NCBI GenBank assembly: GCA_964472675.1
Contig: CAYYLO010000001.1
Span: 21,704 to 85,703, forward strand
Reading direction: 5' to 3'
DNA from: an uncultured Gammaproteobacteria bacterium
Lineage (GTDB): Bacteria; Patescibacteriota; Microgenomatia; UBA8517; UBA10165
Length of the DNA stretch: 64,000 nucleotides
The notes under the pieces are model-generated. The model saw nothing but the letters and a program-made list of their open reading frames with translations, had not been told where the DNA came from and did not search any database. The translations under genes were made by a program, and so were the position numbers. This document shows, in pieces, positions 9,649-28,251 of the stretch. Positions within the stretch are counted from its first letter, which is position 1. Each line of letters begins with the position of its first letter.

Positions 9649-10539
9649 TCACTTATCACTAGTGATGTATCTCCAATATGCCCTAGGGAATCTCAAAGCA
9701 GAGAAAAGAGAGAAAATAATTCCCTGATATCCATCTAAAATTCCTTTGTGGCGAATCTGTGTTGTCAAAAACCAACTGGCAGGTTTAACCATCACATAAT
9801 CTACAAACGTAAGCACATCTTTTCCCAAATGTTCTTTCACCATTTGTGCTTTGATCAATTCTATATACCGATTGTTTCTTGAAAGATATCGAGCAAAAGT
9901 AGGGGAATCAACATGATATAGCGGACTTTGTAGCCAACCTACACGCCCGGCGACTTTCATCTGCTCATGAACATCTTTGGCCGGTAAATATGCTTTACCA
10001 TTTTTAATTAGCCTTATTACACCGTCGGGATACACCCCTCCGTATCGAAGGTACTTACCCAAGAAATAATTCAGGCGGGGCAAGAAATATGCAACATATT
10101 CCCCTTTATCAGTCCCTATCTGTCCATCCCTTTTCTCCAAAATTCTCTGGTGCCTTAAGAATAATTTTCTTTCCCGTAAATTCTCTTGATACTTCTCAGC
10201 CTTATCTGAACCCAAACCAATTACATGCTTGATTTCTTTGGCCAAATCCGGGCTGACACGCTCGTCTGCATCCATCTGCAAAATCCACTCACCGCCTGCT
10301 GCCTCAATTGCTTTTTGTTTATTGATATGAAAGTTGGGGTGGTTTTGCGTTTTTATAATTTTTGCTCCAAAACCTTCTGCAATCTCGCGGGTTCTGTCGG
10401 TTGAACTGCCATCCATTATCACAAATTCTCCCGCGATGTCTTTGCAAGACTCAAGACATGCGCCAATGTTTTCTTCCTCATTATATGTTGCCAAAACAAC
10501 TGACAGTTTTATCTTTTGCATATACCTAATTTGCGACAA
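9649..10539 (-). CDS. GT2-family glycosyltransferase
   Basis: KLSVVLATYNEEENI ... MDGSSTDRT ... QMDADE (DXD) with a C-terminal helical extension as in LPS-core GT2 enzymes. Confidence 0.85.
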   Translation of the reverse strand: MSQIRYMQKIKLSVVLATYNEEENIGACLESCKDIAGEFVIMDGSSTDRTREIAEGFGAKIIKTQNHPNFHINKQKAIEAAGGEWILQMDADERVSPDLAKEIKHVIGLGSDKAEKYQENLRERKLFLRHQRILEKRDGQIGTDKGEYVAYFLPRLNYFLGKYLRYGGVYPDGVIRLIKNGKAYLPAKDVHEQMKVAGRVGWLQSPLYHVDSPTFARYLSRNNRYIELIKAQMVKEHLGKDVLTFVDYVMVKPASWFLTTQIRHKGILDGYQGIIFSLFSALRFPRAYWRYITSDK

Positions 10540-12145
10540 CTTTGAAAGCTATACCCCCGCTTGGAAAGTATATCGTTTTTATTGTGTTAGTGCCGTCCGG
10601 CATTTCATTTGAACTTCCCGCAATTAAACCATTGGGGTATTTTGTTCGTGTCTGGTCCCATGGAGAAACCTCCTGAAAATAATACTTGTCAAAATGTTCA
10701 ACTGTCGAAAATCCGAATATGTCCCGGGGAGTTAACGTGTGTTCTTTTTGGAATTTTGCGGGAGGATATTTGGAATAAAAAAGGAAAAGTATATATGGCT
10801 GATCGTAACGGTTTGTAACGACAACATTTTGATATTTACCTTCATTTTGTTTTACAAAACTTACCAGTTCTTTTACCCCATACTGAGAAGAATAGTCGTA
10901 TGTTTTTGCCATATGCAGGTAATACTCATGGAGATATCGGGAAAAATCCCATAGCATAAATAGTACGATCGCAAACACCCCCAATTTCCCTAACTTTCCC
11001 CATTTCCCCAACACCCCGAAAACCTTTACCGCACCATATCCGCTAATTATCACCAACGGAACAATCATATTCTCCGCCCGCAAAGCATGTGGCGATTGAA
11101 AAGTTAAGGCCGCAGCAACCGGCGCAACTACTAGCCACAGGAGAACAGGCAGCCACCCTTTTGGACTTTTAAAAATTACCCCCATGCCTACAACGAGAAA
11201 GACCAGATCCAACAAATACATCTGACCGAATTCCGGTACTTTATTCCTTTGGATTTCGTCCCCGTTAACAAATAAGAAGTCTCCTGAGAAGTGTTTGCCG
11301 TAATTTTGAGCAAAGGCTAAGCCGTAATTCACGACTTTGTTGTGCAGCAACTTCCCGACTAAACTTTCAGTAACGCCGTGCTCCCCTCTTTGTTGATTCA
11401 CCTTATTGTACGGGCCAACGTCTGCAAACACCCCCACACCCGATGCCCTGGAAATTCCCGCTGGCCCAGCGAGGTCTTTGGCTAGTGGTACTAATAATAG
11501 TAGTCCTACTATTCCAACAGCCAACGAATTTCTCAATTTAGCTCTCCCTAGTAATTCCCTGCGGTAGTAAATAAGTAATCCGCAAACCAATAGAGGCACC
11601 ACAATTCGTGCCGCGTGATATGTATAAAGCGAAGCTACAAGCGCCAACACTGAAACCCAAAGATATTTAGAATTTCTAGTTCCTTTTACAAATGACCAAA
11701 CACCAAGAGTAATAAAGAATGTCGCCGCGTTTACTTCCCAACCGCCGCGCGAAAAGTGTATATGCCAAGGAGAGATGGCTAGCATCAAAGATACTAGAAC
11801 CCCCATTTTTTTGTCTCTGAACAATTCTAAACACAACAAATACACAACAAACACAGTTGCCACACCCAAAGCAGCACCTGGAATTCTCACCGCCCATTCA
11901 TTTAAACCAATAGTTGCCACAAATGGCGCAACGATATAAAAATAAAGTCCTGGTTTGTAATCGTTAAACGATTGAAAATGAATTGGCCAAAAGTTACCAT
12001 GCTCGTCTTTCCCTGTTTGCAACAAAGAATAAGCGTTATAACCAATGGCCGCTTCGTCAGCGTTTAACGCAGGCAAATTGTTCAGTTGATTGAAGCGCAA
12101 AAAAGTCGCCAGAATTATGATAAGAACTATTAAGTATTTACCCAT
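10526..12145 (-). CDS. PMT/GT39-family phospholipid-carrier-dependent glycosyltransferase (GT-C)
   Basis: Loop-1 motif LNADEAAIGYNAYSLLQTGKDEHGNFWPIHFQSFNDYKPGLYFY, about 11 TM helices and a C-terminal soluble domain. Start chosen at MGKYLIV, 1 nt after the upstream stop. Confidence 0.85.
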   Translation of the reverse strand: MGKYLIVLIIILATFLRFNQLNNLPALNADEAAIGYNAYSLLQTGKDEHGNFWPIHFQSFNDYKPGLYFYIVAPFVATIGLNEWAVRIPGAALGVATVFVVYLLCLELFRDKKMGVLVSLMLAISPWHIHFSRGGWEVNAATFFITLGVWSFVKGTRNSKYLWVSVLALVASLYTYHAARIVVPLLVCGLLIYYRRELLGRAKLRNSLAVGIVGLLLLVPLAKDLAGPAGISRASGVGVFADVGPYNKVNQQRGEHGVTESLVGKLLHNKVVNYGLAFAQNYGKHFSGDFLFVNGDEIQRNKVPEFGQMYLLDLVFLVVGMGVIFKSPKGWLPVLLWLVVAPVAAALTFQSPHALRAENMIVPLVIISGYGAVKVFGVLGKWGKLGKLGVFAIVLFMLWDFSRYLHEYYLHMAKTYDYSSQYGVKELVSFVKQNEGKYQNVVVTNRYDQPYILFLFYSKYPPAKFQKEHTLTPRDIFGFSTVEHFDKYYFQEVSPWDQTRTKYPNGLIAGSSNEMPDGTNTIKTIYFPSGGIAFKVVAN

Positions 12146-12146
12146 T

Positions 12147-13820
12147 TTACTTCCAGGAAAGTAGTTCAAAAGCCACACTGTCGTCCGGTCTAGTTATTTC
12201 CTTGTAAATTCCATCCGGTTGTTTTTGGGAAAGTTCGGCAAAAGGAGGATGTTCAGGATCAAAAACTATCAACGTGCCTTTATTGTGTAAGTCCCCTGCG
12301 GTGGCATCCCTAAAGGTAATATTATCTAGCCCGGAAACCAACCCTACATCACCAAATTGCCCTTCCTGGTAGGTTTTTTTGGAAACTTGCTGATATTTTG
12401 CTGGATCATATTTTTGGAAAAAGAGGAAGAAAATGTACGGCTGGTTATAACTTTGTTGAAAAACAATCTGCTTGTAATCATTTTGTTCTTTAGAAGTCTT
12501 CATAATTGTTTGTTTATACCCGTATTGCCAACCTTTAGCACTGCGCAAAGGATAATGTACCCAATATTGATCAAGAAAATACACGTAATTAATTGCGTAA
12601 ATAGCAAGGTAACAAAGCAGCAAGATTGCAAATTTGCGGCCACGAATTGCTTCAAATACAAATGCCACTCCGCATCCACTAAGTAAAGTTAGTGGAATGA
12701 CAAGATTCAGACTTCGCACACCTTGTATAGTATCTCGAGATAAAGCAGCAGGCAGCGGAGCCAGCAAAAGCCAGAGAAGTACAAACCACTTTGCATTTCT
12801 GTTTTGACTTCTTGCCAAATATAATAATCCTAAAATCAGCAACGGCAAGTCCGCCAATAACAAAACGCCAACGTCAGGCGCTCCGTGTCTAGCATTGGCC
12901 CAATCTCCTTCGAAGAACAAGAATCTTGCCGAGTAGTAATTCGTCCACCGGTACAAAACCCCTCGTAAATTGTTCAATGGCTCAGAATGGTAGAGGATAT
13001 ATTGCCAAGAATTTATACCAACTCCTTCCTGGTTTAAAATGCCAGCCACATATTCAACAGGCCTTCTATAGGAAAAAAAACTAAAGACTGCTAACCTTCC
13101 TGCTTGTCCTTGAAAAACGCTTAAGATTATTGGCAATACCAACACAAACCCCAGAATTAAAACTTGTGCTATCTGTTTTCTGGTAAATCTGCCAAGTCGT
13201 TTGCGATACGCCAACAAGAGAGCTGCCACAACCAACGCAGTACTCAATTTGGCCCCCTGATATGTCCAAAGAGTGAGTGCAAAGAAAATAACTGACAGGT
13301 AAATACTTCTGCCCCCGTCTTTAACAAACCGCAAAAATAAATAGATTCCTGCTAAAGTTAACGTCAAAGAAAGATTGGCTTCCCATGCACCTCTGGAAAA
13401 ATGAACATGCCAAGGAGATATTGCAAGCATCAAGCTTGCTAAAATTTTCAATTTTTCGTTCTTGAATAATTCGCCTACTGAACAATAAACAAGTCCTACA
13501 GCGGCAATACCTGCAATAGCACTGGGAAGTCGCACGGACCACTCTGCCAAGCCCAATATAGCTACGAATGGTACTGTTAGGTAGACATAAAGTCCCGGTT
13601 TCCAATCTCCGAATGACTTAAAAATCAGTGGCAGAAGTTCGCCATACTCATCTCTGCCTGTCTTCAAAATTGAATATGCGTTATACCCCAAAGCCGCCTC
13701 GTCACTGGTTAAATGTGGCGGATTAATATCCAGTTGCCAAAAACGCAACAAGGCAGCAACCAACAAGATTGTGACGAGTAACAGGTGATGAGTTATTGGT
13801 GTAACGAGTTTTCTAATCAT
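12147..13820 (-). CDS. PMT/GT39-family glycosyltransferase (GT-C)
   Basis: LTSDEAALGYNAYSILKTGRDEYGELLPLIFKSFGDWKPGLYVY. ATGA start/stop overlap with the upstream gene at 13817-13820. Confidence 0.85.
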   Translation of the reverse strand: MIRKLVTPITHHLLLVTILLVAALLRFWQLDINPPHLTSDEAALGYNAYSILKTGRDEYGELLPLIFKSFGDWKPGLYVYLTVPFVAILGLAEWSVRLPSAIAGIAAVGLVYCSVGELFKNEKLKILASLMLAISPWHVHFSRGAWEANLSLTLTLAGIYLFLRFVKDGGRSIYLSVIFFALTLWTYQGAKLSTALVVAALLLAYRKRLGRFTRKQIAQVLILGFVLVLPIILSVFQGQAGRLAVFSFFSYRRPVEYVAGILNQEGVGINSWQYILYHSEPLNNLRGVLYRWTNYYSARFLFFEGDWANARHGAPDVGVLLLADLPLLILGLLYLARSQNRNAKWFVLLWLLLAPLPAALSRDTIQGVRSLNLVIPLTLLSGCGVAFVFEAIRGRKFAILLLCYLAIYAINYVYFLDQYWVHYPLRSAKGWQYGYKQTIMKTSKEQNDYKQIVFQQSYNQPYIFFLFFQKYDPAKYQQVSKKTYQEGQFGDVGLVSGLDNITFRDATAGDLHNKGTLIVFDPEHPPFAELSQKQPDGIYKEITRPDDSVAFELLSWK

Positions 13821-16800
13821 TGCTTCTCAAGAATGATAAAAGCCGGATCTCCATTCAAGAAGCGGATAGTTTTCAGTTGCTTAAAATCGGGAGGAAAATT
13901 CCCTGGACTGGTGACGAGAAGAGTTTTACCATCTATCGGTATTTTTAGCCCACTCTCCACCCGCCACTCTCCACCCGCCACTTTTGGCATATCCCAATCG
14001 TTAACAAAATAGAACTTATCAAACCGGTCTATCCAAAACCAATCAGACTGGGCAAACCGCACAAGGTTGGTGTCTTTTTGGTAAGCGGCTGGATCCCAGG
14101 GCCAGTAGAAAAGCAAAAACTCATGCGGTTCGCCATATTTTTTAGTAATAATAAATCGGTCATATTCTCCATAACAAGCTTTTATGTAATCCGCGATATT
14201 TTGATATCCATATTGCCAAGACCAAGAGTAGTTTCTGCTGTAAACAAAGAAGTATTCATACATGTACTTACCCATATTGACAAATAACAATGTGGCGTAA
14301 GCTGTTAATGCGAATGCTTTCCACCTGCGGCTAATTTTTGTTGCTAGCCATATTACCCCAATTGCCGAAATAAGTTGAGGAATAGGCAACATAGAAGCAG
14401 AACGCAAAACTGCAAATTTTTCGTTAGTAATACTTGCAGGAATCGGTGCCAAGAGCAACCACAACAAAACTAACTGATACGCCTTCTCTTTTTTAGTCGC
14501 CCTCCATGCAACCAGTATCAGGCCAATGTAGAAAAAGGGTAAGTTAACCGGATAAAGGAGTCCCCAACCCGGAACGCTAAATTGATATTGCGTACCGCCT
14601 TTAAAAAATAAAAACTGCGGTGAAAAGTAATCCGCATAGTTTTTGGTAAACTTCTCAACAAAGTAAACAGGACGATTGTAGAAAAGACGAGCTAACCCTG
14701 GAGGTAATTTACTTTCCTCGCGCGCATTCACAATGCGGTTTATTGCACCCTGGTCAACCAAAAAAACCCAATTGGCACGTGCCCTTGCCTCAGAATTAGA
14801 CAAGATAAACGGAAGCGGCACAAAAAAAACAGCTAAAATGACAAGGGAAATGATCCCAAGTAAACGTTTGTGTTTGAAAAAATTAAAAAGTTCACGCCGG
14901 TAGATTATAAAAAGGGCAAGCAAAAAAAATGGAGTGAAGATTCTGGTTGTGTGGTAAGAAAAAAGAGTTAGCCCAAAAGCCAAAAACGAAAGCGGAAATT
15001 TGCCATTTACAAAAAGAGCAGCCGCTGTAGTTAAGAAAAACACCGATAAATTTGATTGTAAAACAAACCGCGAAGGGAAAAAGAGCCATGGGTCAATTGC
15101 CACAAAAAATGTGCCAAACAGACTTATGTCTTTCCTTTTAGTAACTCCAAAAAAAACAAAGTAGGATGAAATTATCGTTAAAGTTCCCAAGAGAACATGC
15201 GGCAAGCGGATGGCAAACGCATTAAGACCAAGAAACTTGATAAAAGGTATGGTCAAATAGAGGTTGAGAGGAAGGGGGTAGTCTCCATAGGCTCTAAAAT
15301 TTGTGATCGGAAAGAATTCCCCCCACTCGTCCTGGCCGGTTTTTAAAATAGAGTAAGCATTCCATCCATGACTTACTTCATCCCAGTTTAGACTTGGCGG
15401 TATTTGAGTAATCCCTGCAAACCTTAAAACAAACCCCAACAAGACAATAACTATTAATAACCAATATTTCTTATACACAGTTGAAGAGATCTTTGATCTT
15501 TTATGCCACATATTTTTCTTTACGAAAAACAATAATCCGATCGCTGCCGCAACACTAATAGCATTACCCCAAGTTCTTGCTGGAGTATCAGTAAATCTTA
15601 ATATTGCTTCTTTTTCACCGCTCAGAGCGGGAAGTTGTGCTGTTATTAATCCCAAATCTCCCGAAGGAACAACCGAGTACTCTTTTGATTCTGTAAACAA
15701 ATGCCAACCAGGAAAATAAACTATCGGAAACTGAACTGTGGCAGGTGAAGTAAGTGTTAACTTGTATTTTACCTCATTGCTCTTCTTTAAGACTTGTGCA
15801 CCAAAAAACCTGCCGTCTGCCGAAGGTTGCGAAGGAGCCGGACTTGCCGGAAGTTGGGAAGCTGTTGCAGGCCAATAATCTCCTAAAGATGACGCGGTCT
15901 GTTCTTCCCATTTTTTCCCTGCAAACTGGTCTTTATCTGTAATGTTGTACCACATATCCTCCTTAAAAAAAGAAAAGTTCACAAGGATCACGATGACAAT
16001 AGCAGTTGCACTAATCCACAGAGGAAATCGCCTGGAAACGAACACTATAGCTCCAGAAGCCAGCGCAAAACTGAAGGTTGCGATAGAAAGCCAACGCCAC
16101 GGAAATTGAAAATATGACGTAAATTTGAGGCTTTCCCAAATAGGTGTCGACTTATTGTGTGTTAGAAACAAAGCCAGCCAACCAATTAAAACTAACACCA
16201 AAATGTCTTTAAGTTTTTCTTTTTGGCGAGTTATTAACAGGCATACCAGTGCTATCAAAGGCAATACCCACTGCACTTGCCCCACAGATAAACTTAAATC
16301 ATCTTGAGGACCAAAAAGTGAAGCGCCATACCCCCAAAATCTTGAAATTAAAAGTTGGTTCAATGTGGCAAAATGTGCCCTAAAATCAAAATAACCAATG
16401 GTGATCGATTCCAAGTTTACATATTTGGACTCCGACACCACAGGTAGTAGATAAAATGCACTAAGTGCTAACGCCAAAACCCCTCCACCAACTAGCCAAG
16501 GAATCTTACTGTAGTTTTTCCTTTCCACAATTTTACATCCCAACCATACTCCCAAGAAAAGCCCAAACATTAGAAGCGACAGGTTGTGTGTCAGCAACAG
16601 CAGAGCAAGGCTGACACTAAACCACAAAAGACTTTTGATCTTGCCCCCATGAAGAAAGTTATAAGCAAAGAGCGCAATAAAAGGGAAAAGTGCAAAAGCA
16701 AAAGCTTCGGGCAAAGCTGCCCGAACCCAAACATCAAGAGCTCGATATGGCGCGTATACATAAACCATGCTGCTCACCAATGCCGCATATTTATACGAAG

Positions 16801-17173
16801 TTGAAGAGGAATTCTGATTCTTCTGATTTCCCCAAACCCTTAAAGAGAGCAAATACATACCTAAAGCAGATCCAATAATCGAGAGAATAAACACTACCTT
16901 GGTGGAATCAATAATTTGCATTCCCAGCAAGTGGAATACTTCGCCTACTGCGTAAGGTATTTGCGTGTAAAAGTTAAACAAAGGTTCACCATACCCAAAA
17001 CCAGCGTCGGGAGCCCAGCGACAAGGGATTTGGAAGTCCTTTATACAGCGATCAAACTCAAACAAACGGAATAAATGCGGGTCCTGCATGGAATATATCC
17101 CTGGCCGGAGCATCCTAAAAAAAGCGGGGATTGTGAGAACAACAACAAACAACAAAAAGAAATATTTTCTCAT
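13817..17173 (-). CDS. Fusion protein: N-terminal YfhO-like/PTPS-related GT-C module (about aa 1-554) plus C-terminal PMT/GT39 module (about aa 555-1118)
   Basis: N-half is colinear with the stand-alone 52578..54464 protein (DFQIPCRW...PLFNFY...; C-terminal FPGWHLF ~ FPGWKVF). C-half from MWHKRSK (ATG at 15511) carries LNWDEVSHGWNAYSILKTGQDEWGEFFPI and the full PMT architecture. One uninterrupted 3357-nt ORF. Confidence 0.8.
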   Translation of the reverse strand: MRKYFFLLFVVVLTIPAFFRMLRPGIYSMQDPHLFRLFEFDRCIKDFQIPCRWAPDAGFGYGEPLFNFYTQIPYAVGEVFHLLGMQIIDSTKVVFILSIIGSALGMYLLSLRVWGNQKNQNSSSTSYKYAALVSSMVYVYAPYRALDVWVRAALPEAFAFALFPFIALFAYNFLHGGKIKSLLWFSVSLALLLLTHNLSLLMFGLFLGVWLGCKIVERKNYSKIPWLVGGGVLALALSAFYLLPVVSESKYVNLESITIGYFDFRAHFATLNQLLISRFWGYGASLFGPQDDLSLSVGQVQWVLPLIALVCLLITRQKEKLKDILVLVLIGWLALFLTHNKSTPIWESLKFTSYFQFPWRWLSIATFSFALASGAIVFVSRRFPLWISATAIVIVILVNFSFFKEDMWYNITDKDQFAGKKWEEQTASSLGDYWPATASQLPASPAPSQPSADGRFFGAQVLKKSNEVKYKLTLTSPATVQFPIVYFPGWHLFTESKEYSVVPSGDLGLITAQLPALSGEKEAILRFTDTPARTWGNAISVAAAIGLLFFVKKNMWHKRSKISSTVYKKYWLLIVIVLLGFVLRFAGITQIPPSLNWDEVSHGWNAYSILKTGQDEWGEFFPITNFRAYGDYPLPLNLYLTIPFIKFLGLNAFAIRLPHVLLGTLTIISSYFVFFGVTKRKDISLFGTFFVAIDPWLFFPSRFVLQSNLSVFFLTTAAALFVNGKFPLSFLAFGLTLFSYHTTRIFTPFFLLALFIIYRRELFNFFKHKRLLGIISLVILAVFFVPLPFILSNSEARARANWVFLVDQGAINRIVNAREESKLPPGLARLFYNRPVYFVEKFTKNYADYFSPQFLFFKGGTQYQFSVPGWGLLYPVNLPFFYIGLILVAWRATKKEKAYQLVLLWLLLAPIPASITNEKFAVLRSASMLPIPQLISAIGVIWLATKISRRWKAFALTAYATLLFVNMGKYMYEYFFVYSRNYSWSWQYGYQNIADYIKACYGEYDRFIITKKYGEPHEFLLFYWPWDPAAYQKDTNLVRFAQSDWFWIDRFDKFYFVNDWDMPKVAGGEWRVESGLKIPIDGKTLLVTSPGNFPPDFKQLKTIRFLNGDPAFIILEKQ
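13937..13980. repeat. Tandem 14-mer (cactctccacccgc x2 plus a partial unit) within the PMT-module coding sequence
   Basis: ccactctccacccgccactctccacccgccact; encodes AGGEWRVESG. Confidence 0.6.
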
Positions 17174-18840
17174 TGTGTACTAACTAACCAAATAGCGTCC
17201 TGGCCATTGGGAAATTTGATCTTCTCGACAACATTTGCATTTGAAGAAAACTCGTTAGATTTTCCTATCAAAAGCGTATCTTTTTTGCCAAAAGCCTTAG
17301 AGTCAATACTTGTAAAATTATACTTACCCAAACTGTAATCTCCCAATTGGTCTACAAAGGAACGCCCCTCTGTTTTGTATCTCAGCCAATCTTGAGCTTG
17401 TTTTTGGTAATCTGCCGGATCCCATTTCTTGTAAAAGGCCATATAGATTTGCGGCTCTGATAAAGAGCGGCTAAAGACAACTTGGGAATATCTACTGTCA
17501 ATTGCTGAAGTTAGTTCAACGGCTTGTTTTCTACCATAAAGCATGGCCTGGGCCTGATCCCGCGGCGCGTGGTAATAATAGTCTTCCAAAAAGAATCCTA
17601 AACTCACCAACAATATAGCAATATAACTATATAGCAGTAATTTTTTTGATACTCGCCATTTCTGAGAAATTAAATCCAGCAAAACTAAGGCACCATACGC
17701 AGATAATATTTGTAAGGCCGGCATCATTACCGCCACTCGATTCCCCGCATACCCTGGGCCCTTTGTTAAAGCAGCGGGTATTGGCGCAATCAAAATCCAA
17801 ATTATTAACAATTTAAGGGGTCCCCTTGCCGAGCCTGCAAGGGGACCCCTTGCAAAGATCGACCACAATGAAACAAGTATAAAAGGCAGTTCAACCAGGT
17901 AAAGAACTCCTCTGCCGGGAATCATGCCGTAAGTCCACTCGCCTGCCCCTTGAGTAAACAAAAACTGGGGCGAAAAATAGGAGAGATATCTTTGAGAAAA
18001 TTCCTTAAACACATAAACTAGTTTGTTCGAGAAAATTCTTTCTATAACGTCTGGCACTCCGGCCAAAACTGCCTCATACCGCCTGTCGGCAAGGTTCGCC
18101 CAGTTGTCTGTAGGATTAAAAATTGCAATATCCGATCCGCGGCCTCCCGCCCCAGAAAAAAGCATCGTATAAGCGGCAACGGCAATAAAGACAGCCAACA
18201 CAGCAATAGCTATTCCATACTTCCTTCCCGCCTTAAAGTGCAATAGCAAAGTGCGGCGATCCCACAATAATAAAAGGATAATAAGTGGAGTAAATAATCT
18301 TGCAGAGTGGTAACTAAAGAGATTCAAGCCAAAAGCCAAGGCAGCTACTGCCATCCAACGGGGTTTTTCCAAACCTTTGTAAAACGCCCATACTCCAAGC
18401 GGCATAAAAAATGTCGTCAGGTTTGCCTCGAAAGCGCCGCGGGAAAGTGAAATGTGCCATGGCGATACAGCCAGCAGCCAAGCTGCTAAAATTTCCAATT
18501 TCGATCCGCCGAAGAGCCCTTTAACCATCAAATAAGTGGCGAGTATAGCTAGTGTTCCAAAAACAGCACTAGGGAGTCTCACAGCAAATTCATTAAGTCC
18601 AAATATTGCTACCGAGGGAATTGCTAGATAGGTATATAGCGGAAGTTTATAATCCCCAAAAGACTGCAAAGTTAGAGGAAGAAAGCTACCCCACTGATCT
18701 TTGCCGGTTTTCAAGATTGAGTACGCGTCATAACCAAAAGAGGCCTCATCAGGGGTAAAACCTGCAGGGTGGGAGACAAGGCCAATAAAACGCAAAACAA
18801 AAGCCATCAAAATTATTCCAACCAAGACCACACGGCGCAT
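17170..18840 (-). CDS. PMT/GT39-family glycosyltransferase (GT-C)
   Basis: FTPDEASFGYDAYSILKTGKDQWGSFLPLTLQSFGDYKLPLYTY. ATGA overlap with the downstream gene start at 17170-17173. Contains the palindromic in-frame insert ARGPLAGSARGPL. Confidence 0.85.
   Translation of the reverse strand: MRRVVLVGIILMAFVLRFIGLVSHPAGFTPDEASFGYDAYSILKTGKDQWGSFLPLTLQSFGDYKLPLYTYLAIPSVAIFGLNEFAVRLPSAVFGTLAILATYLMVKGLFGGSKLEILAAWLLAVSPWHISLSRGAFEANLTTFFMPLGVWAFYKGLEKPRWMAVAALAFGLNLFSYHSARLFTPLIILLLLWDRRTLLLHFKAGRKYGIAIAVLAVFIAVAAYTMLFSGAGGRGSDIAIFNPTDNWANLADRRYEAVLAGVPDVIERIFSNKLVYVFKEFSQRYLSYFSPQFLFTQGAGEWTYGMIPGRGVLYLVELPFILVSLWSIFARGPLAGSARGPLKLLIIWILIAPIPAALTKGPGYAGNRVAVMMPALQILSAYGALVLLDLISQKWRVSKKLLLYSYIAILLVSLGFFLEDYYYHAPRDQAQAMLYGRKQAVELTSAIDSRYSQVVFSRSLSEPQIYMAFYKKWDPADYQKQAQDWLRYKTEGRSFVDQLGDYSLGKYNFTSIDSKAFGKKDTLLIGKSNEFSSNANVVEKIKFPNGQDAIWLVSTQ
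17815..17851. repeat. Perfect 15-bp inverted repeat with 7-nt spacer inside a PMT coding sequence
   Basis: aaggggtccccttgc-cgagcct-gcaaggggacccctt; encodes ARGPLAGSARGPL, an ~10-aa insertion relative to the paralogs (e.g. KSPKGW in 10526..12145). Confidence 0.8.
18488..18503. repeat. Additional copy of the GGAAATTGGAAATT motif (complement strand) inside PMT gene 17170..18840
   Basis: aaaatttccaatttcg, encoding SKLEIL; the same 14-mer as at 9081, 9133 and 55974. Confidence 0.65.
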
Positions 18841-18843
18841 AAA

Positions 18844-20106
18844 TTAATTGTAGCCCTTTTTACGTTTAATCCCAAGCAATAGAACACTAAACACCAAGAG
18901 ATTTACAACAGCTATAAAATTAGGCAGCCATGAAACTTTGTAAATAATTTCCAGTGGTGCAAAAGACGCGGCATTGAACAAGTGATAAATATTCAAAAGA
19001 TTTGAAACAGATAAAACTGCAACAGCCAAAGTTGTCAGCGGAACCAGGCCGGATAGTAATGTGGCTATCGGGAAAAATGGATAAAGGTATCTTTCGTGAA
19101 TTCTGGTCATAAACAAGAATGTAACTAATGCAGACAGAGCCAGGCCATAGAGAACATTTCTGTTTGATAAATTGTGTTTCAACCACAAACATAATCCGCC
19201 TATTACAACTGAGGAAACCAAAAAGCCCAATAATCTTGCGCTTGTTGAAAAATAAATTGTGCTATCTAAAGTTTTACCATTATCAATCAACCACCAAAAG
19301 TTAAATGCGTTTGCACTCAAAGAGCCTATTTCGCCTGACAAGATTCTGTTCTTGTATAAGTTTAAAAACCATATCGGAAAATCAACCTGGGGATGAAACC
19401 AAATTGAAATAAAGATTGTGGTTAAAACCGCGGCTAAAATGCTTTTTAACCACTGGCTACGATTAAATTTTTTAGTCAGCGCAACTACAAGCAGTATGGG
19501 AATAAAAATTGCCAACGACCCTTTAAAGAGTAAAGAAAGTATAAATAAAAATGAGAAGACTGTTAATTGACTACTCAAAAGTGCCACTATTGCACTTAGT
19601 CCTAAAAGATTAACTATACTATCTGTCTGACCCCAAATACTTGAGTTAAACCACACAACGGGATTCAAAACCCAAAATGTAGACATTAACAGCGCAGTTT
19701 TTGGCTTCTTCAACCTAATGAAGTATTGATATAAAACAGTCGCTATTCCCAAATCTGCAAAAATACTTGGAAGTTTTATCAACAACTTAAGTCCGCGGTC
19801 TTCCCAAAACCAAACAAAGGCCGAAGGAAAAGCGGGGATATGGTTGTTAAACCACCAAGCGAGTCGCTCGACTGTATTCCATATAATTTGTAAGCCAGCA
19901 AAAAGCAAAATGGTTAAAGGAGGTTGGTTTGGGGCAGAGTATGGCCAATTTTTGAGGTCATAAAAACCACTTAGTCCATGAGAAACAGCAATTTGCCCCC
20001 ACGAAATGTTGTTGTTCAAATCGCCATGATACGCGCTAAAAACAAAATAAAGCCGGAGAATTAAGCCCGTTAAAAGCAGAAAATAGAATTTATGTAAAAA
20101 CTTCAC
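18844..20106 (-). CDS. Integral membrane GT-C-like protein (DUF2029/GT87-like), family uncertain
   Basis: 420 aa, about 11 TM helices, loop motifs YHGDLNNNISWG and SSIWGQTDSIVN. GTG start overlapping the upstream stop (GTGA). Confidence 0.4.
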   Translation of the reverse strand: MKFLHKFYFLLLTGLILRLYFVFSAYHGDLNNNISWGQIAVSHGLSGFYDLKNWPYSAPNQPPLTILLFAGLQIIWNTVERLAWWFNNHIPAFPSAFVWFWEDRGLKLLIKLPSIFADLGIATVLYQYFIRLKKPKTALLMSTFWVLNPVVWFNSSIWGQTDSIVNLLGLSAIVALLSSQLTVFSFLFILSLLFKGSLAIFIPILLVVALTKKFNRSQWLKSILAAVLTTIFISIWFHPQVDFPIWFLNLYKNRILSGEIGSLSANAFNFWWLIDNGKTLDSTIYFSTSARLLGFLVSSVVIGGLCLWLKHNLSNRNVLYGLALSALVTFLFMTRIHERYLYPFFPIATLLSGLVPLTTLAVAVLSVSNLLNIYHLFNAASFAPLEIIYKVSWLPNFIAVVNLLVFSVLLLGIKRKKGYN

Positions 20107-21839
20107 TTTGTATTTTTGGTTAACAGGAAGAAAGCCGGTTCGCCTGATGGATATGCGACCGCTTTAACCATTTTTAGATCTTTTGGTAAACGCTCCGGTT
20201 CTTGTATTAAATTCACATTTACTTCCTTGGCAGTGGCTACATACAAAGTTTTGTCCGGTAAAACCTGGCCTAATGTATAAAGGTCAACATTGGGGGAGCC
20301 AAAGTAATATTTATCCAGCTTAGAAATCGCGCCAAAATTAGGTAGAGTTTCCCGTGGTAAATCTAAACCCCCCGTACCTCTTGGCTGGTAGAGTTCATGG
20401 AATCTTTGGGGGGAAAATTGAGACCAGCCTAGGAAAAAGATCATTGCCGGTTCTCCAGCATTACTAACAATTACACGATCATAAGTATTACTTTCTTCTA
20501 CCGCTGACCCAACAGCATCTTCAAATCCTGCATGCCACCACCGTTCCGAATCCCATGGGTAATGGATCCAATATAGATGTTGGAAAAATACGAAACTTGC
20601 CAATAATGCCAACACATACGAACACACAAACAGGCTGCGCACACGAGCTGAGAGCGAATTAAATGTGCTCCACACGCCATATCCCACCAAAAAGATTAAA
20701 GGTGGAAGAAGAAGAAAGAGACGTGTGGCGTGATTCCCGCCGTCACGAGTCAAAGCCGCTGGGATTGGCGCCACAATGACCCAGAAGAACACAAAAATTT
20801 TTATCTTCCTGTCTACCTTGGAAAAAATGAAGTATGCAAACCCCAACACCAGGAAAATGGCTTCAAATTTGTAAAACTCGCCAATTCTATTTGGTGAGTG
20901 GCGAGGATTCGGATCACCTTGGATAAAAAGAAAATCTGTTGAAAACGCACGTAAATAATTCTGGCCTACAAAGGTGGCAAGCCATGTCGCCTTATTGTGG
21001 AACAACTTGTCAACTATAGTCGGAGCTATCCCTACTTGAGCTACAGGATTGCGCATTTTGGCATCCCTTAACCGTGCAAATCCAATTTCAGGAGACATTG
21101 TGGGATCTGAAAAGACGGAAATGTAGTTAAAACGCTGGGCGCCTCCACCAAAAACCGTACTAAAAGTAATCGGTGCGGCAACTATCGCAAAACACAAAGC
21201 GGCAATCGCAAGCTGTTTCCGCGGCAGTTTAAGAAGATCACGCCACCAAATCAAAATTAATGCACTCATGGTCAGAGGTAAAAAGAGTTTGGCTGTGCTA
21301 TATACCCAAGGAGTAAGCGCAAGCGATACGCCAGCCAAATAAAGCCATCTAGGATTTTTCAAACCACGCAGGAAGAAATAAATTCCTGAAACATAAAAGA
21401 AGAAGAGCTGAGTTACTTCAAAGCCCGCACGGGAATATTGTATGTGCCATGGAGAAATGGAAAGGAGGAAGGCAGCCAAAAGGGCAAACCCTTGCTTGCC
21501 GGTAATTTGCCGCACTAAAAGGTAAAATACCCACACCCCCAAAATCCCAAAAATTGCTGCAGGGAGTCTGACTCCCCAAGGCGAGACTCCAAAGATTGCC
21601 ACAGTTGGTACAGCAGAATATAAATATAGCGGTGTTCTCCATTCAGCCAAAGACTGAAAATGGATAGGTAAAAAGTTGCCGGAGTAATCACGGCCAGTTT
21701 TCAAGATAGAATAGGCATGATAACCCACATCCAGCTCATCTCCAAATAAAGAAACCGGCACGCGGTCAAGCTGCCACAGGCGCAATAAGCTAGCTATTGC
21801 TAAAATACCTGCCAATAACAACTTTGAATGTTTATGCAT
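20103..21839 (-). CDS. PMT/GT39-family glycosyltransferase (GT-C)
   Basis: LFGDELDVGYHAYSILKTGRDYSGNFLPIHFQSLAEWRTPLYLY plus the conserved IVAPIPAALT-type helix. Confidence 0.85.
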   Translation of the reverse strand: MHKHSKLLLAGILAIASLLRLWQLDRVPVSLFGDELDVGYHAYSILKTGRDYSGNFLPIHFQSLAEWRTPLYLYSAVPTVAIFGVSPWGVRLPAAIFGILGVWVFYLLVRQITGKQGFALLAAFLLSISPWHIQYSRAGFEVTQLFFFYVSGIYFFLRGLKNPRWLYLAGVSLALTPWVYSTAKLFLPLTMSALILIWWRDLLKLPRKQLAIAALCFAIVAAPITFSTVFGGGAQRFNYISVFSDPTMSPEIGFARLRDAKMRNPVAQVGIAPTIVDKLFHNKATWLATFVGQNYLRAFSTDFLFIQGDPNPRHSPNRIGEFYKFEAIFLVLGFAYFIFSKVDRKIKIFVFFWVIVAPIPAALTRDGGNHATRLFLLLPPLIFLVGYGVWSTFNSLSARVRSLFVCSYVLALLASFVFFQHLYWIHYPWDSERWWHAGFEDAVGSAVEESNTYDRVIVSNAGEPAMIFFLGWSQFSPQRFHELYQPRGTGGLDLPRETLPNFGAISKLDKYYFGSPNVDLYTLGQVLPDKTLYVATAKEVNVNLIQEPERLPKDLKMVKAVAYPSGEPAFFLLTKNTK

Positions 21840-21841
21840 AG

Positions 21842-23473
21842 TTACTCGATCGCAACAATCTTTGCCTGAATATCTCCTCTACTATTTTTAACTATTTCAA
21901 GAACTTTTGCACCTTTTTGGTTGTCGATATCTTTTTGAGGTAAATTTTCTTCACTTCCTACAAACAATGTGTTCTTTAAATTTCTATCGTTAGGCCAATA
22001 TATTTTTCTAAAAGTAAATTTGCCAAAATCAAATGACTTGCGCGGTTTCCCTATTTTTTGCAGATCTAACTCTTTTAAATAACGCCCGGGCGGATACTTC
22101 CCATAAAAAAGATAGAAAATATACGGCTGGCCATGTCCGGTTTCGATAATAACTTGTGAGTATTTGCTTTCATACTTCATCACAACAGGGACAGTCTCGC
22201 GAAACCCAGGCTGCCAATTGCCAGAATCACGGAGAGGCAAGTAGACATGTAGCGAATCGAACAAATAAAAGGCTGCTAATAATCCCCATATACCAAAGAT
22301 AAAAAAACCGAGCTTCTTAGTAATTTTAGAGTAAGCATTAATTATGACCACCACACCAACCCCTATAAGCATGGAAAAAACCGCAAAAAGCGCCATTGTT
22401 CTACCTGGCTGGAACCAATTCCAAGTCAGCATCGCCGGAACAGGAGCTACAATAACAATAAAGATTAGTTCTTTGTACTTTTGAATGTTTTTAAATAAAT
22501 AAGCTAGTCCTACAACCCAAGGAATAAATTCGAAGGAGTGAAAAATAGAATTGCCGGCCAAAATTGTCGCCGGCTCTTGCGGTTCTCTCAAAAAAAGATT
22601 TGGGGGAGAAAAGTAAGCAAGATACCTCCCGCCAACCTCCCCAAGGAAGTAAAAGAGTTTATTGTGTAAAAAAATACTCCAGATGCTATTTGCCGAATGT
22701 TGCTCAATTAAAGAATTCAAAAAGGGAGTTACAGGCCAAAATATAAAGATATTAGTAGAGCCCACTCGAGCTAAAGCCTCACCTTTTAGGGCAAGAAAAA
22801 GAAACGCGCTGGTAAATATGGCCAAAATGCATGCGGATAAGGATAGTGGCACCTTGGGATATTTGGTCAGGTCTTTCTTATGCTTAAAAAATAAACCGGC
22901 CAGAATTAATGGCACTAAAACTTTATTAGCGTTATATGTGTACATGGAAATCATAAAAGATAAAACGGCTACTATTAGCAAATATGGCTTGCTTTTGGAA
23001 TACAAAAAGAGCAACAAACCAAGAAGCAAAAAGAAGAGGGCTTCATTGGCGTCGTGGTAAACACGCGACAGGTGAACAGACCAGGGCTCGATAGCGAAAA
23101 CAAATGCTGAAACTAGAGCTATTGAATTCTTTTTAAAAATCTGCGAAGTCAGGGAAAATATCAAAAAAATGGAAAGTGTTCCCAATAAAGCAGAAGGCAA
23201 CCTAACACTTAGTTCATTGAGACCAAAGACCTTGATGTTGGGGATCATTAAGTAAAGAGGCAACGTTGATTTGTACTCATCAAAAGAACGCGTAAAAATA
23301 GGCAAAAATTTACCATACTCATCTCTGCCCAATTGAGAAATGGAATAAGCATTATATCCCCAAGCTGCCTCATCCCAATTTAAAGAGGCGGGAGACCTAG
23401 AAAGACCATATAACCTTAAAAATCCTCCTAGTAAAATGACCAGTGCCAAAAAGCTGTATTGAATTTTTCTCAT
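21842..23473 (-). CDS. PMT/GT39-family glycosyltransferase (GT-C)
   Basis: LNWDEAAWGYNAYSISQLGRDEYGKFLPIFTRSFDEYKSTLPLY; ATGA overlap with the upstream gene at 23470-23473. Confidence 0.85.
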   Translation of the reverse strand: MRKIQYSFLALVILLGGFLRLYGLSRSPASLNWDEAAWGYNAYSISQLGRDEYGKFLPIFTRSFDEYKSTLPLYLMIPNIKVFGLNELSVRLPSALLGTLSIFLIFSLTSQIFKKNSIALVSAFVFAIEPWSVHLSRVYHDANEALFFLLLGLLLFLYSKSKPYLLIVAVLSFMISMYTYNANKVLVPLILAGLFFKHKKDLTKYPKVPLSLSACILAIFTSAFLFLALKGEALARVGSTNIFIFWPVTPFLNSLIEQHSANSIWSIFLHNKLFYFLGEVGGRYLAYFSPPNLFLREPQEPATILAGNSIFHSFEFIPWVVGLAYLFKNIQKYKELIFIVIVAPVPAMLTWNWFQPGRTMALFAVFSMLIGVGVVVIINAYSKITKKLGFFIFGIWGLLAAFYLFDSLHVYLPLRDSGNWQPGFRETVPVVMKYESKYSQVIIETGHGQPYIFYLFYGKYPPGRYLKELDLQKIGKPRKSFDFGKFTFRKIYWPNDRNLKNTLFVGSEENLPQKDIDNQKGAKVLEIVKNSRGDIQAKIVAIE

Positions 23474-25137
23474 TGTAGAGTCGTTTTTACAAACCAGAGC
23501 TGGTCGCCTAAAAATTTATTTGCTTGACTGACTCCTAAAATCTTTTGAAATACCACCCCATCTGTAACATTTGAAACATCTTCAAATTTTTGATTTTCGC
23601 CCAAAAACTCGCCTCCCAGGCCTACCCAAACTTCGTCTTTGCCCCTAGGGGATTCAAAATATTTGAAAGATTTGAATTCTACACCCCCTACTTGATTAAT
23701 ACGTTGAATTCCTGAGGAAGAATTTGTACTTAGTGTCTTTCCCTCCCGAAACGCATTTGGATCTACCTTTTTATAATACAGGTAATAATAAGCGGGCTCT
23801 CCTAACCTGTCTGTAACTATAACTTTTTTTTCATTTATATCCTGGTTTGTAATCGTGTTCCATATTTGATATTGTCGAAAATCATTCTCTGGAAGCCATT
23901 TTTCTTGATGGTAATTTAGCAAATCATAAAAAGATGCGTAAGTAATAACAAGAAATAGTAATCCCAGACTTATCAAAGCGGGACGCAAAGAAAATCTTAT
24001 TTGCCATAGGTAAGTAAGCAGTATTGTATAACCCAAAGCAAGAAAAGGAAGGAGGTAGACATAGGTTTCTTTAGAAAAAATTACGACTGTGGAGAGAGCG
24101 CTTACTGCAAGCAATTTATGCTGCTTGGGCAGTCGTTTGCCAAGAACAATCATTGCCAGCAAAATGAATGGTACTTCCCAGAAAAAGAATCGTGGAAGAC
24201 TTTTGGGGTCAACTGCTTCTCTGGACAAAATTGTACCAGCCTGGAAAGAAGAGGTCAGTTTCTCGTAGTTGAAATTTTCTATCAATGATCGGGAAAGGGC
24301 ATTGGCTCCATAAAATACTTTATTGTGAGCAATGCGATTAAAATTGAATTTTTCAGTTATTAAAGGTGAACCGTAAAGCTGACCAAAAGATAACCTTTGA
24401 TCAATTAAATAAGTAAAGTTTTGTGGCTGAATTTCCCTATATACCGTGTTCCTCTTAAAAAAACTGATTAGTTGGGGACTGGCTAGAAGGAACACAACTA
24501 TCGCCATTAAAGAGACCACCAACACGGAAAGGCTAACCTTTTTCCCCTTTCGGATATAGGACTCTCCCACAAACAAACATGCCAGAAAGGGTATGGAAGA
24601 AAAGTCTGAAAGTACACCCAGAAAAGACAGGAAAACTGCAGAATACCACTTTTGCGTAAATAACATGTAACTTGCAAATAGGCTAAATGCTAGAGCTCCA
24701 GTTAACCCCAAGTTAAATAGGCTTAATTGAATAAAGAAAGGGGATAAAGAGAAAACTAAAGAGGCAATTGCTGCTTGTAACCTACTTTTAAGAATTAGCA
24801 GTGACGATAAGAAAACAGCATAAACAGCCAAACCCCCCAAGACAATGGTCGGGATTCTAACAGCTGCCGTATTTAATCCGAATAACCAAATTGTTGGTAT
24901 CCGTAGATAAACCCCCAAAGTAGACAAATAGTTATTGTCTCCCCGAAACAGTATTCCAGGCAAATTGCCATTAGTATCTCTCCCCGTGTGTATTATTGAA
25001 TATGCAGTGTAACTTTCTTTTGCCTCCGCAAAATTTATTGGAAAGTTCGTATGGATTCTAAAAGTTAAAAAAAGGGCAATTATTAACACCCATACTGACA
25101 ACAATTGTTTCCGCTGAGATTTAGAAGTATTGGCCAC
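23470..25137 (-). CDS. Divergent PMT/GT39-like membrane protein (DE motif degenerate: Asp replaced)
   Basis: Same architecture and length as its neighbours, but the loop-1 motif reads AEAKESYTAYSIIHTGRDTNGNLPGILF. When aligned to D-E-x-x-x-G-Y-N-A-Y-S, the catalytic Asp position is Ala. Confidence 0.65.
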   Translation of the reverse strand: MANTSKSQRKQLLSVWVLIIALFLTFRIHTNFPINFAEAKESYTAYSIIHTGRDTNGNLPGILFRGDNNYLSTLGVYLRIPTIWLFGLNTAAVRIPTIVLGGLAVYAVFLSSLLILKSRLQAAIASLVFSLSPFFIQLSLFNLGLTGALAFSLFASYMLFTQKWYSAVFLSFLGVLSDFSSIPFLACLFVGESYIRKGKKVSLSVLVVSLMAIVVFLLASPQLISFFKRNTVYREIQPQNFTYLIDQRLSFGQLYGSPLITEKFNFNRIAHNKVFYGANALSRSLIENFNYEKLTSSFQAGTILSREAVDPKSLPRFFFWEVPFILLAMIVLGKRLPKQHKLLAVSALSTVVIFSKETYVYLLPFLALGYTILLTYLWQIRFSLRPALISLGLLFLVITYASFYDLLNYHQEKWLPENDFRQYQIWNTITNQDINEKKVIVTDRLGEPAYYYLYYKKVDPNAFREGKTLSTNSSSGIQRINQVGGVEFKSFKYFESPRGKDEVWVGLGGEFLGENQKFEDVSNVTDGVVFQKILGVSQANKFLGDQLWFVKTTLQ

Positions 25138-27452: not shown

Positions 27453-28251
27453 TAACTTGGGGCAATTTCGACAAAGCCCAAAGAACCGGCATTACATAGC
27501 CCAGGTGACGCAATCTCCACAATAATCCAGGGATGTGTTTGCTTACTATCCACCCTAAGTTTAAGTTCTTCCAACAAAACAAAAGTTGGTTTCTCTCTTT
27601 TATATAGTTTAGGTATCTTGTTGAGAAATACTTCCTGTTTATTGTTGATTCATGCTTGTGCGCGACTAGCGCTTCAGGCTCCCAAATCAGTTTCCATCCT
27701 CTTTTTAGCGCGCGATATGATAAGTCGACATCTTCCCAGTAAAACGGGTTTAGTAGAGCATCTAGCCCACCGAGATTAGCCCAAATAGATCGGCGGAAAG
27801 CGCCCGAACCTCCGCTGATCCAAAAGGTATTGTGAGGTTTATCCGACTCCGGTCCCATTTGGTGCCCTATGAAACCTTGCTCAATTTTTGGAATTGCATA
27901 TGAGTAACCCTTTTCTCTCAAAGAGACACCAAAAACTTGCCTGTCTTCAAAGTGCTTCAATACAAAGCACAAAATATTTTTTTCCGGAACGACATCAGAG
28001 TTGAGGAGAAAAACAATGTCGGCAGAAGTTGCGGCAACACCATCGTTAACGGTAGAAGAAAAACCCTGATTCTTTTTGTGTCGCACAATCTTTACAGTAG
28101 GAAAGTGCTCTGTCAAAAAAGCGGCACTACTATCCGTTGAAGCATCGTCCACAACAATAACCTCGTCAAATCCCACCCTCAGAACAGAGGGCAAATTTTT
28201 CTCAAGCAATTTCCTTCCCTGCCAATTAGGAATCACAACAGCCGTCGTCAT
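27379..28251 (-). CDS. GT2-family glycosyltransferase
   Basis: TTAVVIPNWQG ... VVDDASTDSS ... LLNSDVVP, canonical GT-A signature. Confidence 0.85.
   Translation of the reverse strand: MTTAVVIPNWQGRKLLEKNLPSVLRVGFDEVIVVDDASTDSSAAFLTEHFPTVKIVRHKKNQGFSSTVNDGVAATSADIVFLLNSDVVPEKNILCFVLKHFEDRQVFGVSLREKGYSYAIPKIEQGFIGHQMGPESDKPHNTFWISGGSGAFRRSIWANLGGLDALLNPFYWEDVDLSYRALKRGWKLIWEPEALVAHKHESTINRKYFSTRYLNYIKERNQLLFCWKNLNLGWIVSKHIPGLLWRLRHLGYVMPVLWALSKLPQVIVRRTREAKEVKVTDEEIFSQFQH

Follow-up and report, generated by a model that had tools for sequence, protein, structure and literature searches.

Tandem GT-C glycosyltransferase paralogs in a glycosylation island of Microgenomates

The array and its members

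The stretch of DNA analysed in this work (hereinafter, the window) corresponds to 64,000 nucleotides (nt) of contig CAYYLO010000001.1 and harbors, between positions 10526 and 25137, an array of minus-strand genes coding for polytopic membrane glycosyltransferases of the GT-C type. An earlier note on this DNA described the array as seven consecutive paralogs. The analysis revealed eight open reading frames (ORFs), seven of which do carry the domain of one family (paralogs A to G), whereas the eighth (18844-20106, referred to as 'p') is an interloper of another GT-C type. An additional paralog (H), already placed at 43092 by the note, is located outside the array on the opposite strand. The genes are the following (aa, amino acids; bits refer to Pfam models, unless otherwise indicated):

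10526..12178, minus strand: paralog A, 550 aa; D-E intact; start probably at ATG 12145; PMT 38.9 bits, PMT_2 31.5 bits
12147..13820, minus strand: paralog B, 557 aa; D-E intact; ATGA overlap with C; PMT_2 43.1 bits, PMT 28.0 bits
13817..15508, minus strand: paralog C, residues ~556-1118 of the 1118-aa ORF 13817-17173; PMT 27.2 bits, residues 575-791
15509..17173, minus strand: N domain of the same ORF (residues 1-555), PTPS_related/YfhO-like, polytopic, GT-C-type; PTPS_related 26.5 bits, YfhO weak
17170..18840, minus strand: paralog D, 556 aa; ATGA overlap with the 1118-aa ORF; PMT_2 52.6 bits; the member whose structure was modelled
18844..20106, minus strand: interloper 'p', 420 aa, PIG-M/PIG-U/GT87-like GT-C membrane protein, outside the paralog family
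20103..21839, minus strand: paralog E, 578 aa; D-E intact; PMT_2 55.0 bits, PMT 39.9 bits
21842..23473, minus strand: paralog F, 543 aa, accessory; D-E intact; ATGA overlap with G; PMT_2 40.7 bits, PMT 31.9 bits
23470..25137, minus strand: paralog G, 555 aa, degenerate; A-E in place of D-E; family profile 548 bits
43092..44765, plus strand: paralog H, 557 aa; D-E intact; family profile 588 bits; 18 kb from the array

The seven array paralogs and H can be aligned end to end, with pairwise identities of 18-35%, and share the N-terminal motif xDExxxGY(N/D)AYS...TGxDxxG. Against a family profile derived from these eight sequences, every one of them reaches 548-739 bits, far in excess of chance, the highest value being that of A. 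The D-E pair is present in seven of the eight members, including C; hence, the statement that every member has the loop-1 signature holds for all the array paralogs but G. The second part of the motif, previously given as G-x-D-E-x-G, is really G-x-D-x-x-G, as it reads GKDQWG in D and GRDYSG in E. Regarding 'p', the window protein has no Pfam match; the profile of its orthologues retrieves the glycosylphosphatidylinositol (GPI) mannosyltransferase 1 (E=1.7e-8), and, among single orthologues, one matches Pfam PIG-U and one GT87.

The junctions between these genes are very tight. Start and stop codons overlap within an ATGA at 13817-13820, 17170-17173 and 23470-23473, and within a GTGA between 'p' and E (20103-20106); at two further junctions, the genes are separated by 3 nt (18840/18844) and 2 nt (21839/21842), and at the A/B junction (12145/12147) by 1 nt, provided that A really starts at the ATG at 12145. 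The overlaps and short gaps are therefore as previously described, and, because the junctions are tight or overlapping, the array genes are likely co-transcribed, in agreement with the single polycistron that had been proposed. The scan for promoters and terminators inside the array gave counts matching the shuffled expectation (41 vs 40.9; 21 vs 22.2) and is uninformative on a possible splitting of the operon.

For comparison, a sample of 84 related loci (L-numbers below) was drawn from one-genome-per-species and metagenome collections. The window derives from a groundwater bacterium with a tiny genome, related to Blackburnbacteria; the closest genome is that of Candidatus (Ca.) Blackburnbacteria RIFCSPHIGHO2_01_FULL_43_15b (locus L006), belonging to the Microgenomates group of Patescibacteria. 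This comparison bears on the ORF 13817-17173, which had been taken as one paralog gene: its residues ~556-1118 do represent a family member, whereas residues 1-555 are PTPS_related/YfhO-like. Of the 448 family ORFs, no other exceeds 750 aa, and only one NCBI contig carries the fused protein. In all the 59 loci harboring orthologues of C, these are separate genes of ~560 aa, and a counterpart of the N domain is a separate gene of 542-559 aa directly upstream of C in L006, L007, L008, L051 and L065. Paralog C has its own ATG (15506-15508) and carries Q at the position of E138, likewise in the L006 orthologue. The junction (15509-15520) reads AAGAAAAATATG in the window and AAGAAAAAACATG in L006, the window having one base fewer in the A-run. 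An established fusion architecture for the 1118-aa protein is thus unsupported, since it is unique among the 448 members and the 1-nt difference in the A-run explains it; the ORF may result from a true frameshift fusion or from an assembly error in the homopolymer.

Family assignment and predicted structure

Using the gathering scores of Pfam (22.7 for PMT, PF02366; 26.1 for PMT_2, PF13231), PMT is matched by five members (A, B, C, E and F), D remaining below the threshold (18.8), and PMT_2 by five as well (A, B, D, E and F). PMT_2 is not reported for C, G and H, which nonetheless reach 548-684 bits against the family profile; G and H have no Pfam match at all, though the score and the D-E pair of H confirm it as the eighth paralog. 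The clustering with PMT/PMT_2 models, on which the earlier note had made its assignment depend, was thus found. However, the PMT matches are partial (e.g., model positions 2-173 of 245), and neither PMT_4TMC, the C-terminal four-helix module of PMTs, nor the MIR domain of the eukaryotic ones is reported in the Pfam scans of the members (E<=0.01 and E<=1), which also gave no match to Glyco_transf_22 (GT22). The top NCBIfam match of six members is the archaeal Agl23 model (TIGR03663, flippase activity-associated protein), with 22-55 bits vs a cut-off of 126.25 and limited to the N-terminal ~200 residues; no match to an ArnT equivalog emerged from the same scan. When family sequence profiles were compared with the PDB, no PMT was retrieved at E<=10, and the best E-values for any solved GT-C relative were only 0.017-0.22.

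The AlphaFold2 model of D, obtained with 44 sequences, has a predicted local distance difference test score (pLDDT) of 91.5 and a predicted template modelling score (pTM) of 0.91. It consists of ~11 transmembrane (TM) helices (2-18, 84-110 ... 399-429), with D31-E32 in the first outer loop, a long outer loop (EL4) at ~231-312 and a C-terminal alpha/beta domain of ~125 residues starting from ~430; in the predicted topology of the family enzymes, the loop with the catalytic D-E pair faces outward, and so does the C-terminal domain. In the structural ranking, ArnT (19.9), ALG12 (19.9) and ALG9 (18.1) precede Pmt4 (17.6) and Pmt2 (16.7), and the C-terminal domain resembles that of ALG12. Across the orthogroups, 27 positions are conserved, including D31, E32, D48, R88, W128, R134, E138 and R368; of the ~445 members not belonging to the G group, nearly all have D-E (three lack it and a few are gapped). 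The agreement between orthogroup consensus sequences is lowest in EL4 and in the C-terminal domain (0.54-0.55 vs 0.63-0.76 elsewhere). The fold, together with the conserved R/K positions (R88, R134, R368), suggests that the family might use polyprenyl-phosphate-sugar donors.

As judged from the predicted fold, the family is one of GT-C enzymes of the PMT_2/ArnT-like kind, whereas the label 'PMT/GT39' proposed for it rests on a partial match to a hidden Markov model (HMM) that is unsupported by the domain content or by the structural ranking. Databases name the homologues 'glycosyltransferase family 39 protein' or 'ArnT-like', and in UniProt the F orthologue of L006 is listed as 'Glycosyltransferase RgtA/B/C/D-like domain-containing protein'; the label 'glycosyltransferase family 39' invites the wrong inference of protein O-mannosylation. 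No close homologue with a characterised function was found. With ArnT and the RgtA-D-type lipid-A and lipopolysaccharide-core enzymes (CAZy GT83), the array members share a polytopic GT-C core followed by a small outer C-terminal alpha/beta domain, and the PMT_2 match of the five array members. They differ from ArnT in sequence (12-14% identity, with profile-to-sequence E-values of only 0.15-0.22), in the number of helices (~11 in the model of D vs 13) and in being five to eight in an array rather than encoded by a single gene; moreover, a monoderm cell of the candidate phyla radiation (CPR) has no lipid A.

It could be argued that the paralogs act like PMTs, each as an O-glycosyl(mannosyl)transferase modifying proteins, and that the set has diversified to serve distinct acceptors of this type (S-layer proteins, pilins or other surface proteins). 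PMTs of family GT39, including the single actinobacterial Pmt, have the D-E pair in the first outer loop and the Pfam domain that five members match, and eukaryotic PMTs form paralog sets that pair up. The divergence of EL4 and of the C-terminal domain is what would be expected if acceptor recognition had diverged, and protein-glycosylating bacterial GT39 enzymes do exist (PMC11727336, PMC6151902). Nevertheless, the array enzymes carry a soluble C-terminal domain, similar to that of ALG12, instead of PMT_4TMC or MIR; the solved PMTs are neither matched at the sequence level nor the nearest structures, being outranked by ArnT, ALG12 and ALG9, i.e., by enzymes acting on lipid-linked glycans. Furthermore, the genes are strictly co-inherited within a locus of the polysaccharide type, with Wzx, GT2 and GT4 genes (see below), and the characterised PMT_2-domain enzymes of monoderms act on wall polymers and not on proteins (PMC8035078). 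On the whole, protein acceptors appear rather unlikely.

Conservation of the array and its surroundings

The family comprises 6,345 clusters (50% identity, E<=1e-30), with homologues from metagenome-assembled genomes (MAGs) of Blackburnbacteria, Woesebacteria, Microgenomates and Patescibacteria; on sequence grounds, it represents one large GT-C subfamily that, in the sampled loci, is found in the Microgenomates group. Where the locus titles are informative, they refer to Woese-, Ames-, Shapiro-, Collier-, Curtiss-, Davies-, Gottesman- and Blackburnbacteria. Many third-party-annotation (TPA) MAG records harboring the operon (L007-L009, L014-L016 and others) are titled 'uncultured Gammaproteobacteria' or 'Pseudomonadales', and one 'Clostridia bacterium'; titles of this type (an example being OZ246419.1, an 810-kb 'chromosome') seem to be placeholders or mistaken taxonomic assignments.

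In the 84 loci, a tandem array typically has 4-8 members per ~21 kb, so the 'extreme expansion' formerly attributed to the source genome appears unsupported or overstated, five of the paralogs being ancient orthogroups kept in a fixed order. According to the best-hit analysis, clear orthologues of A, B, C, D and E are present in 58, 32, 59, 58 and 48 loci, respectively, those of H in 14, of F in only 4 and of G in 1. The relative order E..D..C..B..A, with labels assigned from sequence, is maintained in 36 of the 50 fully flanked loci and spans Woese-, Ames-, Shapiro-, Collier- and Blackburnbacteria. The PIG-M-like gene 'p' usually follows E, lying between E and D in most loci; a YfhO/PTPS-like gene ('n') often precedes C and a PIG-V-like one ('v') is located downstream of the array. 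The orthologues of H (45-54% identity) are embedded in the array elsewhere, just upstream of the PIG-M-like gene (L010 4152-5888, L051 6435-8117).

Paralogs A-E are under purifying selection, with ratios of nonsynonymous to synonymous substitution rates (dN/dS) of 0.07-0.18 vs L006 (0.11 for B; 0.07 for E, which is 87% identical to its orthologue; that of A is 80% identical). A recent tandem duplication can be ruled out, given that the paralogs are just 18-35% identical and that A-E are closer to their orthologues in other candidate phyla than to the paralogs of their own genome. Since orthology, positional order and the wider context are conserved across loci, the array is, as far as these comparisons indicate, an ancient operon shared across Microgenomates.

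The genes flanking the array in the window are the following:

5316-6116, minus strand: Dpm1/PgfS-like GT2, downstream partner (Pfam/NCBIfam)
6117-7442, minus strand: Wzx flippase, downstream partner (Pfam/NCBIfam)
7364-8533, minus strand: PIG-V-like GT-C, downstream partner (Pfam/NCBIfam); 50% identical to L002 18491-19651
8505-9635, minus strand: GT4, downstream partner (Pfam/NCBIfam)
9649-10539, minus strand: GT2, downstream partner (Pfam/NCBIfam)
25177-26784, minus strand: PMT_2 protein, upstream partner (Pfam)
26562-27452 and 27379-28251, minus strand: two GT2, upstream partners (Pfam)
28259-28912, minus strand: methyltransferase, upstream partner (Pfam)
28899-30548, minus strand: PMT_2-like 'r', upstream partner (Pfam); orthologues 44-50% identical in many loci
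30470-32977, minus strand: YfhO, upstream partner (Pfam)

The downstream partners follow A as the same genes in the same order in L002-L005, and the upstream ones maintain their order in L002/L005; the wider context of L002-L005 thus reads YfhO, PMT_2, methyltransferase, two GT2, array, GT2, GT4, PIG-V-like, Wzx, GT2, and a PIG-U-like gene also belongs to the conserved context of these loci. The listed TTG start of 25177-26784 would add a 65-residue non-membrane leader overlapping the upstream GT2; the ATG at 26589 (MEKYHKK...), immediately before the first TM helix, is the likelier start.

The neighborhood extends into one co-directional super-cluster: from 1554 to 42328 (~41 kb), all the substantial ORFs lie on the minus strand without intergenic gaps larger than ~40 nt, and the ~33 genes code nearly all for glycosyltransferases, flippases or methyltransferases. 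The window as a whole contains at least 18 GT-C-type membrane glycosyltransferase domains, which occupy nearly half of the 64 kb, so that the term glycosylation super-island appears justified. The tallies given for its components (about five ArnT-like, three YfhO-like, Dpm1-like and two Wzx proteins) are also about right. Besides the paralogs, there are five PMT_2-type proteins (25177, 28899, 54461, 56788 and 59300), three YfhO/PTPS-like ones (30470, 52578 and the N-half of 13817-17173), two Wzx-type proteins (6117-7442 and 40841-42328), an LPG_synthase_TM protein (1554-2480) and several short GT2. Among the latter, 5316-6116 and 56010-56795 are the most Dpm1/PgfS-like, their best matches being PgfS, PpgS and dolichyl-phosphate hexose transferase, with 53-86 bits vs NCBIfam cut-offs of 370-500.

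The comparison with L006 revealed a mosaic structure. The PMT_2 gene 25177-26784 is absent from L006, three L006 genes are missing from the window locus, and 'p' shares only 36% identity with its L006 counterpart. A tract of ~2.7 kb running from 25047 to ~22350, which covers G and three-quarters of F from its 5' end, has a nucleotide identity of 88-99% with L006 2257-~4950, vs 72-86% for the adjoining genes; the synonymous divergence (dS) is 0.22 in the tract and 0.9-1.6 outside (F, 94% identical to its orthologue, has a dS of 0.23). This looks like the outcome of cassette exchange combined with recent recombination or transfer, as in surface-polysaccharide loci. The swapped 'p', the genes present on one side only, the G/F tract and the patchy distribution of F, G and H would also fit the idea that the paralogs are alternative 'serotype' cassettes, i.e., interchangeable decorators of one surface glycan that evade phage or host recognition. 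The core A-E, however, is not variable: it consists of 1:1 orthologues in a fixed order, with dN/dS near 0.1. Therefore, as an account of the whole array this explanation is hardly probable, whereas for the accessory members it is plausible.

Among these, the degenerate paralog G has A-E in place of D-E and a second motif reading G-R-D-T-N-G, and has lost the catalytic Asp (D31) and about eight other residues that show no variation elsewhere in the family (R17, P55, W128, R134, E138, Y177, R368, G383). Its orthologues form ~30 clusters with 31-49% identity and a conserved signature of their own; in these clusters, the first Asp varies (D/A/Q/N/S/G/E/W/R) and the equivalents of R134, E138 and R368 are absent throughout. 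A decaying pseudogene can be ruled out on the basis of the intact ORF, of a dN/dS of 0.33 vs L006 and of the ~30 orthologous clusters with their own signature. G is best interpreted as a conserved paralog, probably non-catalytic, and it probably serves as a non-catalytic partner.

Alternatively, the paralogs might assemble into a single hetero-oligomeric machine in the membrane, comparable to Pmt1-Pmt2 heterodimers or EmbA-EmbB, in which G, and perhaps others, would act as scaffold or acceptor-binding subunits instead of catalysing steps of their own. The fixed order and the overlapping start and stop codons would favor stoichiometric co-expression, G retains the fold without the catalytic residues and is under purifying selection, and the solved GT-C relatives among the structural matches include dimers (Pmt1-Pmt2, Pmt4, EmbA-EmbB); it has been speculated that small GT-Cs may require a second protein to bind the acceptor (PMC8035078). 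On the other hand, G is present in a minority of arrays (1/84 sampled loci; ~30 clusters overall), therefore it is no obligatory core subunit, and six or seven members possess the full catalytic set, which a scaffold would not need. A machine of this kind seems quite unlikely.

Possible role in a surface glycoconjugate

The reading that we favor, and to which we would give an even chance, is that the array acts in successive or parallel steps on one cell-surface glycoconjugate. It is suggested by the fact that A-E are non-redundant and co-inherited in order within a Wzx/GT2/GT4 locus, that their nearest structures act on lipid-linked glycans, and that wall polymers are the substrates of the PMT_2 enzymes of monoderm bacteria. 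Indeed, A-E are inherited together with PIG-M-like, PIG-V-like and YfhO-like GT-Cs, cytoplasmic GT2/GT4 and a Wzx flippase, and PMT_2-domain GT-Cs of monoderms (GtlB, GttB, YkcB, CsdD/F, GtsC, GacL) glycosylate lipoteichoic acid (LTA), wall teichoic acid (WTA), rhamnan and secondary cell wall polymers (SCWP) from undecaprenyl-phosphate sugars (C55-P-sugars) (PMC8035078; also PMC5836110, PMC11127046). According to this scheme, the enzymes would reside in the cytoplasmic membrane; short Dpm1/PgfS-like GT2 would make polyprenyl-phosphate sugars on its cytoplasmic face, these donors would be flipped across the membrane, and each catalytically intact paralog (A-F, H) would transfer one sugar to an acceptor on the outer face. 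The acceptor might be an oligosaccharide linked to a lipid, or else a polymer, either of the wall or anchored to a lipid, and each paralog would be responsible for a different sugar or linkage, the product being varied by the accessory members (F, G, H and others) and by whole-gene swaps between close relatives. The many distinct acceptor substrates envisaged previously are possible; however, the strict co-inheritance in a fixed order in a Wzx/GT2/GT4 locus fits successive steps better.

Several observations weigh against a single glycoconjugate. No GtrA-type flippase, priming phosphoglycosyltransferase or ligase was recognised in the window, the sole polymerase-like match being a weak one to O_anti_polymase (42344-43111), so the acceptor pathway is incomplete in the window, and the candidate donor-synthase GT2 score far below the NCBIfam cut-offs. 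Pfam PMT is above threshold in five members, and the PMT and TMTC families of eukaryotes are examples of paralog sets able to act on distinct proteins; a fixed gene order would also be displayed by the subunits of a complex.

Among the functional parallels to the one-glycoconjugate reading are two groups of systems. In the multi-component systems of Gram-positive bacteria (CsbB/GtcA/YfhO, GtlA/GtlB, GacI/GacK/GacL, CsdAB/CD/EF), a GT-A C55-P-sugar synthase, a flippase of the GtrA or Wzx type and a PMT_2- or YfhO-type GT-C cooperate, the latter outside the monoderm membrane (PMC8035078, PMC5836110). The window holds candidates for synthase, flippase and GT-C; nonetheless, one GT-A per GT-C is the rule there, whereas here five to eight GT-C paralogs are chained and accompanied by other GT-C types, no GtrA-type flippase was detected in the window and the GT2 assignments are weak. 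As for mycobacteria, the arabinan and mannan enzymes (EmbC-EmbA-EmbB tandem, AftA-D, PimE and MptA-C) are likewise GT-C paralogs, some of them in tandem, forming from polyprenyl-phosphate sugars one linkage each of a wall glycan or of a lipid-anchored one; however, they are structurally farther than ArnT, ALG and PMT enzymes, much larger and provided with carbohydrate-binding modules, and belong to another phylum and another envelope.

A third parallel concerns the concept of serial GT-C paralogs working on one lipid-linked glycan after the flippase step, which is that of ALG9/ALG12 (GT22), ALG3, ALG6/8/10, PIG-M and PIG-V; PIG-M-like and PIG-V-like genes, similar to those of the GPI mannosyltransferases, belong to the array operon. 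The ALG enzymes are eukaryotic and only 11-12% identical to the array enzymes, which are bacterial and encoded by one operon; the similarity is structural only. By analogy, it is tentatively proposed, with less confidence than the one-glycoconjugate reading as such, that the operon might specify an extracytoplasmic assembly line resembling that of the endoplasmic reticulum (ER) lumen: after the Wzx flip, at least five GT-C paralogs and the PIG-M-, PIG-V- and YfhO-like enzymes would build a lineage-defining surface glycan from polyprenyl-phosphate donors, and the dead paralog G would be a non-enzymatic partner, like PIG-U of the GPI transamidase. If so, no larger GT-C pathway encoded by an operon would be known in bacteria, and it would offer a way into the envelope chemistry of CPR-host attachment.

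CPR/Patescibacteria are ultrasmall and thought to be largely host-dependent, Microgenomates genomes being of ~1 Mb. The core operon order is kept across several Microgenomates candidate phyla, which suggests that a complex extracytoplasmic glycan is a central, selected feature, with attachment, phage defence and envelope integrity as plausible roles. The genes are already present, auto-annotated, in public MAGs, and the enzyme class is known; what is new is the conserved multi-paralog operon in a reduced genome. In full-text searches of the literature on glycosyltransferases of CPR/Patescibacteria/Microgenomates, no description of the array, of the orthogroups or of the dead paralog was found, and Méheust et al. 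mention Microgenomates-enriched membrane families only generically (PMC6744442). The orthogroups defined in this work represent concrete targets, together with their conserved order and the dead paralog, and the operon might serve as a marker for Microgenomates.

Some other genes of the island deserve mention. A 23S_rRNA_IVP-family protein of 142 aa (33976-34404) is encoded between glycosyltransferase genes. Two large ORFs are located at 37136-40887, one of 568 aa without Pfam/NCBIfam match and one of 687 aa with a sub-threshold match to DUF3863 and a hydrophobic C-terminal region. In the middle of the island, a type II restriction-modification pair (45860-47426, plus strand) consists of an N4/N6 DNA methylase and an endonuclease of the MvaI/BcnI family, and the 128-aa ORF at 44719-45105 matches only the C-terminal ~50 positions of the helical domain of 5-hydroxymethyldeoxyuridine (5-hmdU) DNA kinase (HMUDK_hel, 63.7 bits), possibly as the remnant of a phage-type DNA hypermodification gene. 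Lastly, genes for a Cas4-like PD-(D/E)XK nuclease, a type I phosphodiesterase/nucleotide pyrophosphatase and a DUF4037 protein (49084-52447) divide the main island from a second GT-C/GT2 group (52578-61590).

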